Both the position numbers and the translations under genes were made by a program. A DNA stretch of 64,000 nt, from assembly GCF_011045215.1 (NCBI RefSeq), contig NZ_CP049201.1, one strand, 5' to 3'. This DNA is from Escherichia coli. Its GTDB lineage: Bacteria > Pseudomonadota > Gammaproteobacteria > Enterobacterales > Enterobacteriaceae. The notes beneath the pieces were generated by a model, which made no database searches, was not told where the DNA came from, and saw only the letters and a program-made list of their open reading frames with translations. Below are positions 56,893 to 61,192 of this stretch, piece by piece. Positions within the stretch are counted from its first letter, which is position 1; each line of letters starts with the position of its first letter.

Positions 56893-57230
56893 TTGTGATT
56901 TTGACCTTAGTCTATGCGCTCCATTCACGAAAATTGCGCGGATAATTATTTTGTGAAAGCTATTATCCTACACCTGTAAGAAAATCCGCGCACAATTGAA
57001 GCCAGAGTCTTATTTTTTATATTGAAAAATATGTTAATTTAAACCCTATGAGAGATGATGCTTAACTTATCGTATTTATACTACTCTATTATTTAACGAT
57101 AATAGAATAAAAATAGAAAGAGAGTAGTCCCCTACTCTTATATATCCATGTTGACGATAAATCCTATGTATATACTGTGCATCATCGCTATCACAAATCC
57201 TAATAATTCATTTCCACACAGGATAAGCAG

Positions 57231-59510
57231 ATGAAGAAAAAAATTGAATCCTACCAGGGAGCTGCCGGTGGTTGGGGTGCTGTTAAATCCGTAGCGAATG
57301 CAGTACGTAAGCAGATGGATATACGCCAGGATGTTATTGCCATGTTTGACATGAATAAGCCAGAGGGCTTTGACTGTCCGGGTTGTGCATGGCCAGATCC
57401 TAAGCACAGTGCGTCATTCGACATTTGTGAAAACGGCGCAAAAGCAATCGCCTGGGAAGTCACGGATAAGCAGGTAAATGCCTCTTTCTTTGCTGAGAAT
57501 ACGGTTCAATCATTACTTACCTGGGGAGATCACGAGCTTGAGGCTGCGGGACGTCTCACTCAGCCTTTGAAATATGATGCTGTCAGCGACTGTTACAAGC
57601 CATTAAGCTGGCAACAAGCTTTCGACGAAATTGGCGCACGCCTTCAAAGCTATAGTGATCCCAATCAGGTTGAATTCTATACTTCGGGCCGCACTTCCAA
57701 TGAAGCTGCCTTTCTTTATCAGCTTTTTGCCCGTGAATACGGGAGCAATAACTTTCCCGACTGCTCCAACATGTGCCATGAACCGACAAGCGTGGGTTTG
57801 GCAGCGAGTATCGGTGTAGGTAAAGGGACCGTGTTGCTGGAAGACTTTGAGAAGTGCGATTTAGTCATTTGCATTGGGCATAACCCTGGTACAAACCACC
57901 CTCGCATGCTGACTTCGTTGCGCGCTTTAGTGAAACGGGGAGCGAAAATGATCGCCATCAATCCTCTACAGGAACGTGGCCTGGAGCGATTTACCGCACC
58001 GCAAAACCCGTTTGAAATGCTGACGAACTCTGAGACTCAGTTGGCCAGTGCCTACTATAACGTGCGCATCGGTGGCGATATGGCGTTGCTCAAGGGGATG
58101 ATGCGCCTGTTAATTGAGCGCGATGATGCTGCAAGTGCCGCAGGTCGGCCCTCATTGCTGGATGACGAATTTATTCAAACGCATACCGTCGGCTTTGACG
58201 AGCTACGCCGTGACGTTCTCAATTCCGAGTGGAAAGATATCGAACGTATTTCTGGACTAAGTCAGACCCAAATCGCCGAACTGGCTGATGCATATACCGC
58301 TGCCGAACGCACCATTATCTGTTACGGAATGGGGATCACTCAGCACGAACATGGTACCCAGAATGTACAGCAACTGGTCAATCTGCTGTTGATGAAAGGT
58401 AACATTGGCAAACCTGGTGCGGGTATCTGTCCACTACGTGGTCACTCTAATGTACAGGGCGACCGAACCGTCGGTATCACCGAGAAACCGTCTGCAGAGT
58501 TTCTGGCTCGCCTGGGTGAGCGCTATGGCTTCACCCCACCTCATGCACCTGGACATGCTGCAATTGCCAGCATGCAAGCAATATGTACGGGGCAGGCTCG
58601 AGCATTGATCTGCATGGGGGGCAACTTTGCACTGGCAATGCCAGATCGGGAAGCGAGCGCTGTACCGCTAACGCAATTAGATTTGGCGGTACACGTAGCC
58701 ACTAAGCTTAACCGCTCTCATCTGCTGACCGCACGGCATAGCTATATTCTGCCGGTTCTGGGGCGTAGCGAGATTGACATGCAAAAAAACGGTGCGCAGG
58801 CGGTAACCGTTGAGGATTCAATGTCGATGATTCATGCCTCGCGTGGCGTGTTAAAACCCGCCGGTGTAATGCTGAAATCAGAGTGTGCAGTGGTCGCGGG
58901 AATCGCACAGGCAGCACTACCCCAGAGCGTGGTAGCCTGGGAGTATCTGGTGGAAGATTATGATCGCATTCGCAACGACATTGAAGCTGTGCTGCCAGAG
59001 TTCGCCGACTATAACCAGCGCATCCGCCATCCCGGTGGTTTTCACCTGATAAATGCCGCTGCTGAAAGGCGCTGGATGACGCCGTCAGGTAAGGCTAATT
59101 TCATTACCAGCAAAGGGCTGTTAGAAGATCCCTCTTCAGCGTTTAACAGTAAGCTGGTCATGGCGACAGTACGCAGCCACGATCAGTACAACACGACGAT
59201 TTATGGTATGGATGATCGCTATCGAGGGGTATTCGGTCAACGAGATGTGGTCTTTATGAGTGCTAAACAAGCTAAAATTTGCCGTGTAAAAAACGGCGAA
59301 AGAGTTAATCTTATTGCGCTTACGCCAGACGGTAAGCGCAGCTCACGCCGCATGGATAGATTAAAAGTGGTCATTTACCCTATGGCTGACCGCTCACTGG
59401 TGACCTATTTTCCAGAATCGAATCACATGCTAACACTTGATAACCACGATCCATTAAGTGGCATTCCTGGCTATAAAAGTATTCCGGTTGAATTAGAACC
59501 ATCAAATTAA
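57231..59510 (+). CDS. ydeP: Molybdopterin oxidoreductase YdeP (formate-dehydrogenase-like, acid resistance)
   Basis: 759 aa; N-terminal Cys cluster (CPGCAWPD) and molybdopterin oxidoreductase domains. Confidence 0.85.
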
Positions 59511-59757
59511 TGCCTCTTCTCATTTCTTCTGCTGTCATCCGCACAGCAGAAGAATTCCTCATTGACTATTATCGCGCAATTTGCTCACATGGATTAAATT
59601 AAACTACATACTATAAGATATAAACTTCTGCCTACAGCTGTAAGAAACTCCGCTCAGTACTGAAGCACCAGTCCTATTTCCTCTTTTCTCCAGCCTGTTA
59701 TATTAAGCATACTGATTAACGATTTTTAACGTTATCCGCTAAATAAACATATTTGAA

Positions 59758-59955
59758 ATGCATGCGACCACAGTGAAAAACAAAATCACGCAAAGAGACA
59801 ACTATAAAGAAATCATGTCTGTAATTGTGGTTGTCTTATTACTGACCCTTACGTTGATAGCCATTTTTTCGGCAATTGATCAGCTGGGCATTTCAGAAAT
59901 GGGTCGCATTGCAAGAGATCTTACACATTTCATTATCAATAGTTTGCAAGACTGA
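59758..59955 (+). CDS. safA: Small membrane connector protein SafA (links EvgS/EvgA to PhoQ/PhoP)
   Basis: 65 aa with a single transmembrane helix (IMSVIVVVLLLTLTLIAIFSAI); conserved position upstream of ydeO. Confidence 0.75.
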   Translation: MHATTVKNKITQRDNYKEIMSVIVVVLLLTLTLIAIFSAIDQLGISEMGRIARDLTHFIINSLQD

Positions 59956-60029
59956 AAATAAACAGCAAATTATAAATATGAAATGTTAAAAAAGTATCGA
60001 TAAAAACTTTATTGTTTTAAGGAGATAAA

Positions 60030-60791
60030 ATGTCGCTCGTTTGTTCTGTTATATTTATTCATCATGCCTTCAACGCTAACATTTTAGATAAAGATTACGC
60101 CTTCTCTGACGGCGAGATCCTGATGGTAGATAACGCTGTTCGTACGCATTTTGAACCTTATGAGCGGCATTTTAAAGAAATCGGATTTAATGAAAATACC
60201 ATTAAAAAATATCTACAATGCACTAACATCCAGACAGTGACGGTGCCTGTTCCTGCGAAGTTTTTACGTGCTTCAAATGTACCGACTGGATTGCTTAATG
60301 AAATGATTGCTTATCTCAACTCGGAAGAACGCAATCATCATAATTTTTCAGAACTTTTGCTTTTTTCTTGCCTGTCTATATTTGCCGCATGCAAAGGTTT
60401 CATTACACTATTAACTAACGGTGTGCTATCCGTTTCCGGGAAAGTGAGAAATATTGTCAACATGAAGCTGGCGCACCCATGGAAGCTGAAAGATATTTGT
60501 GACTGCCTGTACATCAGTGAAAGCCTGTTGAAGAAAAAACTAAAGCAAGAGCAAACGACATTCTCACAGATTCTATTAGATGCCAGAATGCAGCACGCAA
60601 AAAATTTGATACGCGTAGAAGGTTCAGTCAATAAAATTGCCGAACAATGTGGTTATGCCAGTACATCTTATTTTATTTATGCGTTCCGCAAACATTTCGG
60701 CAACAGTCCGAAGAGAGTTTCTAAGGAGTATCGTTGTCAAAGGCACACGGGTATGAACACGGGCAACACGATGAATGCTTTAGCTATTTGA
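60030..60791 (+). CDS. ydeO: AraC-family acid-resistance regulator YdeO
   Basis: 253 aa; C-terminal AraC helix-turn-helix (…CGYASTSYFIYAFRKHFGNSPK…). Confidence 0.8.
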   Translation: MSLVCSVIFIHHAFNANILDKDYAFSDGEILMVDNAVRTHFEPYERHFKEIGFNENTIKKYLQCTNIQTVTVPVPAKFLRASNVPTGLLNEMIAYLNSEERNHHNFSELLLFSCLSIFAACKGFITLLTNGVLSVSGKVRNIVNMKLAHPWKLKDICDCLYISESLLKKKLKQEQTTFSQILLDARMQHAKNLIRVEGSVNKIAEQCGYASTSYFIYAFRKHFGNSPKRVSKEYRCQRHTGMNTGNTMNALAI

Positions 60792-61192
60792 TTATTTGCT
60801 AACGAGTAGTCAACCACACACGCTACGTAAGAATTAAATGGGGCAGCCATTCCCTGCCCCGCGTTGTTTTTAGGCGATATATTTATTGAAATAAATAAGT
60901 GACATTCATCACATATTTATGCATTTGCATAACCTGTTGCATGATTATTTATGATCTCAATTCGGCATTTTGTCAGTAAAATACAATAATTTATTAAATA
61001 TCAATAGATTAGTTGTTTATCGGCGAGAAATTACTTAGTAGAACAGAAAGTAATGTCAACGCTTTATGGACTGTTATTTCCCTTTTTTTAGCTAAATCTG
61101 CTATCTCTTTATGTGACTAACTTCACTTACATCCACTTATTTCTCTTCATAAAATTACTTTGGAATTAAGTACAATAAGAAGAGGAACATTT

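Follow-up and report, generated by a model that had tools for sequence, protein, structure and literature searches.

The 64-kb stretch of Escherichia coli DNA analysed here (hereafter the window) very probably contains, as ydeP-safA-ydeO, an acid-resistance locus with two EvgA-dependent promoters. Megablast and Pfam identified positions 56893–61192 as the E. coli ydeP-safA-ydeO cluster, with ydeN after it. Of 5426 complete E. coli genomes, 5305 contained this region by megablast, under the RefSeq names ydeP, safA, ydeO and ydeN; thousands of genomes aligned with 100% coverage, 98–99% identity and the same gene order, and the closest match among the 5426 was 99.3% identical. Together with ydeQ, whose stop lies at 56892, all of these genes are on the + strand, in agreement with the annotations of the best match and of K-12. 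The functions given below for YdeP, SafA and YdeO are those of the K-12 literature.

57231–59510, + strand: ydeP, 759-aa molybdopterin oxidoreductase of acid resistance, 98.7% identical to K-12
59758–59955, + strand: safA, 65-aa connector activating PhoQ (Pfam and RefSeq name)
60030–60791, + strand: ydeO, 253-aa AraC-family activator of gadE and other genes (PMC4222967)
61193–62875, + strand: ydeN, 560-aa sulfatase, belonging to the next unit, ydeNM

In the Pfam search, SafA matched PF17073 over its full length (E 1e-47), YdeO matched HTH_18 and HTH_AraC (E about 1e-16) and YdeP matched the Molybdopterin family (E 8e-26), with Molydop_binding at 23.8 bits slightly below the 26.8-bit cut-off; the ydeN product matched Sulfatase. 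Megablast, RefSeq names and Pfam thus show that the initial annotation had named the genes of the unit correctly, and its coordinates for the spacers upstream of ydeP and ydeN (56893–57230 and 60792–61192) were exact. It was also right to call the system established and not a novelty, as both EvgA control and H-NS binding have been published; the locus is a known, well-studied acid-resistance cluster with both EvgA sites intact, and is already explained. Rfam reported no RNA family over 54000–64000 at E values up to 1.

We scanned the window with the EvgA box consensus TTCYTACA-NN-TGTARGAA, an 18-bp inverted repeat (TTCYTACANNTGTARGAA), which is attributed to Masuda & Church (2003) and Itou et al. 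(2009) and which we checked empirically on K-12 EvgA-regulated promoters only. In the K-12 emrK/evgA, frc and yfdX promoters, the pattern gave four matches in 20 kb and occurred in 0 of 100 shuffles. The 64 kb held only two matches, even at up to 3 mismatches:

56965–56982, no strand assigned: EvgA box of ydeP, ATCCTACACCTGTAAGAA, 1 mismatch to TTCYTACANNTGTARGAA
59629–59646, no strand assigned: EvgA box of safA-ydeO, TGCCTACAGCTGTAAGAA, 1 mismatch to TTCYTACANNTGTARGAA, same in K-12

The scan that the initial annotation had proposed upstream of ydeP and safA therefore returned one site for each gene. These boxes, together with the control of ydeP and safA-ydeO by EvgA reported for K-12 (PMC5706723, PMC4283999, PMC11210196), uphold its claim of EvgA-dependent activation; the dependence itself is known from the K-12 literature, and evgAS lies outside the 64-kb window. 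In ten E. coli, the ydeP box varied only at the outer base and in the NN spacer, and the half-sites of the safA box were invariant both there and in the divergent, ~85%-identical locus L011. The spacers of L011 are only 65–73% identical to the window, yet its EvgA sites are kept: the left half-site of the ydeP box is changed at its last base only, and the other changes fall on NN and outer bases.

In favour of the two inverted repeats being chance matches in AT-rich DNA, each box has one mismatch to the consensus, and the null allowing up to 3 mismatches is weak, with 0.69 matches expected and at least two in 13 of 100 shuffles. At up to 1 mismatch, however, the expectation for 64 kb was 0.0035 analytically and 0.0017 per shuffle, or about 0.002–0.003 (5 of 3000 shuffles contained any match), and about 0.0001 for the three larger spacers, which together measure 986 bp. 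Moreover, both boxes are equidistant from a -10 element, both are kept in a relative with diverged spacers, and both agree with the sites found at further K-12 promoters under EvgA control. The K-12 promoter check, the expected counts and the L011 conservation effectively refute a chance origin, to which we assign next to no probability. The boxes read as EvgA sites are accompanied by the following promoter elements:

57032–57040, + strand: extended -10 of ydeP, TGtTAATTT, with predicted start A57048
59696–59704, + strand: extended -10 of safA, TGtTATATT, with predicted start near 59711
56996–57023, + strand: alternative sigma-70 promoter of ydeP, TTGAAG-16-TATATT, 18 bp upstream

We infer both starts from the extended -10 elements. 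In both ydeP and safA, TGtTAnnTT ends 66.5 bp downstream of the box centre, and over the 66 nt from box to start the two promoters share 59% ungapped identity, a value reached in 0 of 100,000 shuffles; this similarity was obtained by direct alignment and was not reported by a general repeat search. Judged by sequence, the promoters of ydeP and safA form a pair of paralogous modules of 85 bp with the same box-to-(-10) spacing. Two conserved blocks common to both, TGAAG at -51 to -47 and AGTCYTATTT at -42 to -33, might be candidate sites for a second factor. The -10 hexamers were invariant in ten E. coli, and in L011 only the 'n' of TGn differed. Our promoter and terminator scans served only as pointers because their counts were not above those in shuffles (8 vs 10.7 and 3 vs 4.0, respectively).

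Alternatively, ydeP might be transcribed mainly from TTGAAG-16-TATATT, with a start near 57030 and the EvgA box at about -57, in which case the extended -10 would not be the EvgA-dependent promoter. The consensus scan found this element, neither of its hexamers varies in ten E. coli, and in K-12 it was assigned to ydeP, as a constitutive promoter with an 'HNS' flag, by genomic SELEX using RNA polymerase holoenzyme (PMC3946193). Against it, no usable -10 occurs at the equivalent place of the paralogous safA promoter (CTGAAG-16-TCTTTT), whereas ydeP and safA have the extended -10 equally far from the box, and L011 keeps it. In addition, position 57048 corresponds to -178 from the ATG in K-12 numbering, which is where the published ydeP leader probe begins (PMC11210196). 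We therefore consider it unlikely that the upstream element is the main promoter, and we favour the extended -10 as the EvgA-dependent promoter of ydeP.

We then compared the base composition of the four spacers with that of the rest of the window. Two of them carry the leaders of ydeP and ydeO:

56893–57230, + strand: ydeQ-ydeP spacer, 338 bp, 32.2% GC, with the ydeP promoter and a leader of roughly 183 nt
59956–60029, + strand: safA-ydeO spacer (ydeO leader), 74 bp, 17.6% GC, with SD AAGGAG at 60019–60024

The ydeP-safA spacer (247 bp) has 36.8% GC and the ydeO-ydeN spacer (60792–61192; 401 bp) 31.7%, compared with 47.4% for the whole window, 49.0% for coding DNA and 39.0% for all spacers of at least 60 bp. 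The description of the ydeP and ydeN upstream regions as strongly AT-rich is thus accurate. Equal-length segments that were equally AT-rich made up 1.9% (ydeP spacer) and 1.2% (ydeN spacer) of those in the 64 kb. These two spacers are AT-rich but not unique, since their GC content is the 6th and 4th lowest among the 30 spacers of the window, of which seven were longer. The safA leader had likewise been called AT-rich, and the predicted leader (59711–59757) has 25.5% GC; the safA promoter proper (59629–59710) has 43.9% and hence is not AT-rich. The coding DNA of safA and ydeO is at 38–40% GC. TpA frequency was 0.10–0.14 in the spacers versus 0.055 for the window.

The high-affinity nucleation 10-mer of H-NS is reportedly TCGATAAATT, after Lang et al. 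2007. At up to 1 mismatch, this motif was absent from all four spacers, and the window contained 11 copies against 6.3 expected. At up to 2 mismatches, the four spacers contained 3, 0, 2 and 5 matches against 0.9, 0.5, 0.3 and 1.2 expected, a modest enrichment; for the ydeN spacer, the expectation in composition-matched shuffles was 1.2 ± 1.2. In K-12, H-NS binds ydeP and ydeO promoter fragments in competitive gel shifts (PMC2984483), and the ydeP-ydeQ spacer was flagged 'HNS' by genomic SELEX, the ydeN-ydeO spacer being without the flag (PMC3946193). The H-NS silencing proposed in the initial annotation is accordingly supported for the AT- and TpA-rich DNA of ydeP and ydeO but not for the unflagged ydeN spacer. 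The promoters of gadE, gadW, hdeAB, slp, adiY and cadBA are likewise AT-rich, bound by H-NS in vitro, derepressed in hns mutants and countered by activators (PMC2984483). Unlike these other H-NS-silenced acid promoters, the ydeP, safA and ydeO spacers lack the high-affinity nucleation motif, and the role of activator falls to EvgA, a response regulator of the NarL/FixJ type, and not to GadE, GadX or RcsB.

Around and beyond the genes, three hairpins and the ydeN promoter were located:

57120–57139, + strand: ydeP leader hairpin, 8 bp, -9.4 kcal/mol, z -4.8
59524–59554, + strand: hairpin after ydeP, 12–13 bp, -17.5 kcal/mol, z -4.2, weak T tail
60839–60871, + strand: safA-ydeO intrinsic terminator, GC-rich stem and TTGTTTTT, a hairpin directly followed by a T run
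60970–60997, + strand: ydeN promoter, TTGTCA-16-TATTAA, inside the ydeO-ydeN spacer and listed for K-12 with no H-NS flag (PMC3946193)

The stem of the ydeP leader hairpin is retained in L011 with a G-U pair. That of the hairpin after ydeP does not vary among ten E. coli or in L011, and its loop is inverted in L011; we did not call it a terminator because only 4 of the next 8 bases are T, and it is probably a leaky one. In K-12, ydeO leader RNA (-74 to +10) binds CsrA (PMC11210196).

The AT-rich spacers could also be ordinary intergenic or horizontally acquired DNA without locus-specific H-NS logic, with the ydeO-ydeN spacer being a terminator plus an independent ydeNM promoter and no regulatory boundary. 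We judge the chances of this reading to be even. Four to five of the other 29 spacers in the window are at least as AT-rich, the coding DNA of safA and ydeO is itself at only 38–40% GC, the nucleation 10-mer is missing at up to 1 mismatch, and the similarity of L011 to the window stops ~125 bp after ydeO, just beyond the terminator. On the other hand, H-NS binds the K-12 ydeP and ydeO promoter fragments directly, and the ydeN spacer is somewhat enriched in the motif at up to 2 mismatches. Within the ydeO-ydeN spacer (60792–61192), we found no EvgA box at up to 3 mismatches. Because this spacer has no EvgA box, no H-NS flag and its own sigma-70 promoter, we assigned it to the next unit, ydeNM; it looks like a separate promoter region. 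The initial annotation had counted it with the EvgA/H-NS unit, and its AT-richness is confirmed.

Comparison with K-12 MG1655 showed the same order, orientation and terminators for ydeP (b1501), safA (b1500) and ydeO (b1499), with 98.2% identity over 4.8 kb, equal spacer lengths save for one 5-bp indel, and an identical safA EvgA box. At position 56966 of the ydeP box, the window has T, which brings the box closer to the consensus and is the more frequent allele in the ten E. coli compared, whereas K-12 has G (2 mismatches). Counting the 5-bp indel at 57077–57081, 18 positions of the ydeP leader differ, and the ydeQ-ydeP spacer is the most variable segment of the locus relative to K-12 (94.7% identity), with no match of at least 99% in any of the 5426 genomes. 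Across ten E. coli, variable columns amounted to 13–17% in spacers, about 5% in genes and 11–12% at third codon positions. The regulatory DNA had been described as well preserved, which is true of the key motifs, which are fixed, but not of the spacers as a whole, which vary at least as much as third codon positions do. Upstream of emrK/evgA, frc and yfdX, K-12 has the same TTCYTACA-NN-TGTARGAA, but the box-to-(-10) sequence of these promoters differs from that of ydeP and safA; frc and yfdX share a block of their own, CTCTCTGATT, and yfdX has two boxes. An exact-match scan of 100,044 species representatives with a 23-mer common to both promoters returned three loci, two of them 98% identical to E. 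coli (a 'Nanosynbacter' MAG and an uncultured-bacterium bin) and the third ~85% identical. This is consistent with a locus restricted to E. coli and close relatives, within the reach of an exact-match scan, which is blind to diverged copies.

We further extended the scans to sites for YdeO and PhoP. The YdeO box ATTTCA-N9-21-TGAAAT had a single match, at 63857–63878 in ydeM, and 12 of 100 shuffles did equally well; as this match lies outside the unit, it lends no support to YdeO autoregulation through such a site. PhoP lowers safA expression (bioRxiv 10.64898/2026.05.06.723403). The safA leader had only 3-mismatch matches to the PhoP box (59713, 59733 and 59744), and such matches in the window were not above chance (191 vs 173 expected). 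A perfect PhoP box, TGTTTAGTCACGGTTTA, was observed at 50240–50256, over the -35 region of the F9 fimbrial promoter. It spans -40 to -24 of the f9 start G50280, mapped in PMC3966885, and is separated from the -10 CATAAT by 11 nt, compared with 12 nt in K-12 mgtA, phoP P1 and mgrB; in seven E. coli it varied at degenerate positions only. The F9 operon, immediately upstream of ydeP, is complete in the window, whereas in K-12 it is deleted or truncated (PMC3966885). We tentatively raise the possibility, with considerable doubt, of an undescribed local relay in which EvgA-induced SafA would act through PhoQ/PhoP to place the F9 operon under direct PhoP control. If functional, the F9 PhoP box would connect an adhesin with the sensing of acid and Mg2+.

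In the model that we propose for ydeP-safA-ydeO, EvgS would phosphorylate EvgA at mildly acidic pH, and an EvgA dimer would bind the 18-bp inverted repeat centred ~74 bp upstream of the ydeP start as well as the second, paralogous site upstream of safA-ydeO. From this arrangement we infer the geometry of activation, with EvgA recruiting RNA polymerase to extended -10 promoters that have no usable -35. YdeP would then contribute to acid protection, SafA would switch on PhoQ/PhoP and YdeO would switch on gadE. At neutral pH, H-NS on the AT-rich promoter and leader DNA may keep the locus near silence. Given the poor T tail of the hairpin after ydeP, some ydeP transcripts probably read through into safA-ydeO, and the terminator after ydeO would close the unit, with the separate ydeNM promoter lying in the 401-bp spacer beyond it.

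The EvgA-YdeP/SafA/YdeO branch has been lost in some E. coli, for example strain MP1 (PMC5706723). The present genome appears to carry the intact canonical EvgA to YdeP/SafA/YdeO branch of the acid-resistance network, and may add useful details to that network: paralogous EvgA promoters with identical spacing, a commoner ydeP box allele nearer the consensus, and a ydeP leader that varies more than any other part of the locus.

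The genes of the acid-resistance unit and the start of ydeN all lie on the plus strand, and the boundaries given in the initial annotation matched our ORF map exactly:

57231-59510, plus strand, ydeP ORF, 759 aa
59758-59955, plus strand, safA ORF, 65 aa
60030-60791, plus strand, ydeO ORF, 253 aa
61193 (ATG), plus strand, ydeN ORF, 560 aa

Megablast, RefSeq names, and Pfam agreed in identifying the locus as the ydeP-safA-ydeO unit. Of 5426 complete E. coli genomes, 5394 gave a megablast match to the region 56600-61400 and 5305 covered at least 80% of it; the best identity was 99.3%. 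RefSeq features over it were ydeQ, ydeP, safA, ydeO, and ydeN, and Pfam detected full-length SafA (E 1e-47), AraC HTH, Molybdopterin oxidoreductase, and Sulfatase; an Rfam search of the locus gave no match. E. coli K-12 MG1655 (K-12) has the identical gene order on the opposite strand.

We then examined the proposed activation by EvgA. The EvgA consensus, reportedly that of Masuda and Church in 2003 and Itou et al. in 2009, is TTCYTACANNTGTARGAA; this served as the scan pattern and was checked empirically on EvgA-regulated promoters of K-12. At up to three mismatches, the 64 kb contained two matches only, one upstream of ydeP and one upstream of safA:

56965-56982, ydeP EvgA box, ATCCTACACCTGTAAGAA, one mismatch (pattern scan)
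59629-59646, safA EvgA box, TGCCTACAGCTGTAAGAA, one mismatch (pattern scan)

At one mismatch or fewer, 0.0035 matches were expected analytically per window, and 5 of 3000 shuffles contained any match. The K-12 control regions of emrK/evgA, frc, and yfdX (twice) yielded four matches in 20 kb, a number reached by none of 100 shuffles, and the K-12 safA and ydeP upstream regions matched likewise. The ydeN spacer contained no match in the scan of the 64-kb window.

Extended -10 elements were predicted downstream of both boxes:

57032-57040, predicted ydeP extended -10, TGtTAATTT
59696-59704, predicted safA extended -10, TGtTATATT

The distance from box centre to the end of the extended -10 was 66.5 bp in both promoters. 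From these positions, transcription would start at A57048 for ydeP and near 59711 for safA, with the EvgA box centred at about -74. The K-12 ydeP leader RNA used in PMC11210196 starts at -178 from the ATG, and 57048 corresponds to that position when a 5-bp indel is allowed for. An alternative ydeP promoter, TTGAAG-16-TATATT (56996-57023), was detected by the promoter scan and has been assigned to K-12 ydeP by genomic SELEX (PMC3946193), but its safA counterpart lacks a -10. From box to the start predicted by the extended -10, the two promoters showed 59% ungapped identity over 66 nt, which none of 100000 shuffles reached; 56965-57055 and 59629-59719 are thus paralogous modules. Besides the EvgA box and extended -10, both carry the blocks TGAAG (-51 to -47) and AGTCYTATTT (-42 to -33).

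Conservation was examined by aligning ten E. coli versions, namely that of the window and nine more, among them K-12, O157:H7, and an O25:H4 strain. Variable columns made up about 5% of the ydeP and ydeO genes, 11-12% of third codon positions, 13-17% of the spacers overall, 9.5-10.7% of the box-to-start segments, and 26.5% of the stretch from the ydeP hairpin to the safA box. The ydeP leader was more variable than third codon positions (18.6% vs 12%), with hot spots at 57060-57089 and 57150-57179 and a 5-bp indel (TATAC, 57077-57081) that separates two E. coli allele groups. The ydeP spacer had no match of at least 99% in 5426 genomes (best 97.6%). Relative to the closest genome there were 34 differences, 11 of them in this spacer. 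The EvgA half-sites, -10 hexamers, and ribosome-binding regions were fixed in all ten E. coli, polymorphisms within the EvgA boxes being confined to the NN spacer and outermost positions.

The EvgA boxes and extended -10 elements were largely kept in L011 (NZ_JAATUR010000028.1, labelled E. coli SCPM-O-B-8794), a locus about 85% identical overall (ydeP 88%, ydeO 90%, spacers 65-74%) and more divergent than all 5399 records matched in complete E. coli genomes. Both EvgA boxes persisted in L011, although the left half-site of the ydeP box carries a single A-to-G substitution. Also retained were the TG and -10 hexamers, with 'n' alone changed in both extended -10s, and both shared blocks. The regulatory DNA had been described as well preserved; fixed motifs amid variable spacers indicate that this applies to the motifs and not to the spacers. 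A 23-nt block at the predicted ydeP mRNA 5′ end (57047-57069) was identical in L011 and nearly invariant in the ten E. coli, a run length not significant by itself; it opens with AUG and would encode a five-codon mini-ORF, MRDDA. Of the F9 operon, L011 had only the final ~40 bp of ydeQ, the rest being deleted; no ydeN-like ORF was found within 1.8 kb downstream. Two further loci, L012 (JARKOR010000108.1, a 'Candidatus Nanosynbacter' Saccharibacteria MAG, matching 55014-64000) and L013 (UMGS1713, an uncultured-bacterium bin, matching 59202-61587), were 98.3-98.5% identical to the E. coli region and probably represent mis-binned E. coli contigs.

Three elements bear on the ends of the unit:

59524-59554, hairpin after ydeP, 12-13 bp, -17.5 kcal/mol, z -4.2, weak T tail
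60839-60871, clean intrinsic terminator after ydeO
60970-60997, TTGTCA-16-TATTAA in the remainder of the 401-bp spacer, the K-12 ydeN promoter of PMC3946193

One report (PMC11052181) treats all three genes as a single operon, ydeP-safA-ydeO, and another (PMC5706723) describes a safA-ydeO operon; a strong hairpin with a weak T tail, not called by the terminator scan, fits both descriptions. Between L011 and the window, its loop was almost exactly reverse-complemented (CATCCGC vs ACGGATG) with the 12-bp stem unchanged, which reads as the signature of loop inversion between inverted repeats. Similarity to L011 stopped ~125 bp past ydeO, which argues for assigning the ydeN spacer to a separate unit. 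An exact YdeO box (ATTTCA-N10-TGAAAT) occurred just once in the window, at 63857-63878 (plus strand) inside ydeM, and is probably a chance match, equalled in 12 of 100 shuffles.

Base composition of spacers and window
ydeQ-ydeP spacer, 338 bp, 32.2% GC
ydeP-safA spacer, 247 bp, 36.8% GC
safA-ydeO spacer, 74 bp, 17.6% GC
ydeO-ydeN spacer, 401 bp, 31.7% GC
All 30 window spacers of at least 60 bp, 39.0% GC
Window coding DNA, 49.0% GC
Entire window, 64 kb, 47.4% GC

The AT-richness noted upstream of ydeP and ydeN was borne out, with 1.9% and 1.2%, respectively, of equal-length windows within the stretch being as AT-rich. By GC from the lowest, these spacers ranked sixth and fourth among the 30, and seven spacers were of greater length; they are therefore AT-rich and fairly long, yet unexceptional in their neighbourhood. 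The locus spacers were also TpA-rich, and AT- and TpA-richness offer generic support for H-NS. The H-NS high-affinity 10-mer was absent from them at one mismatch or fewer and modestly enriched at two. Specific evidence comes from K-12, where H-NS preferentially binds ydeP and ydeO promoter fragments (PMC2984483), and genomic SELEX placed an 'HNS' flag on the ydeP-ydeQ spacer and none on the ydeN-ydeO spacer (PMC3946193).

The locus matches the established EvgS/EvgA circuit acting on ydeP and safA-ydeO with H-NS repression; all features agree with what is already known, as had been stated. Differences from K-12 were small: one ydeP-box base, towards consensus here, and a more variable ydeP leader.

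Upstream of ydeP, the F9 fimbrial operon (PMC3966885) is intact (50483-56892), including an 883-aa usher, whereas in K-12 the operon survives in pseudogene or truncated form, with ydeT for the usher. A 1806-aa autotransporter (43069-48489) is likewise intact, its K-12 counterpart yneO being a pseudogene or truncation. At 48682-49557, hipB is intact beside a hipA remnant with an internal deletion, comprising an N-terminal fragment and then a 169-aa C-terminal ORF (K-12 hipA, 440 aa). The F9 promoter contained two elements:

50240-50256, plus strand, perfect PhoP box TGTTTAGTCACGGTTTA, over the -35 region
50268-50273, plus strand, -10 CATAAT

About 0.01 perfect PhoP boxes are expected per 64-kb window. 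Relative to the published F9 start (PMC3966885; G50280 here), the putative box spans -40 to -24 and lies 11 nt from the -10, vs 12 nt at K-12 mgtA, phoP, and mgrB. Among seven E. coli, variation in the box was limited to degenerate positions (N, K), and K-12 retains the promoter before truncated ydeT. Our literature search found no paper connecting PhoP with F9. Because SafA activates PhoQ/PhoP, this box may provide a local relay joining SafA/PhoQ/PhoP to the neighbouring fimbriae.
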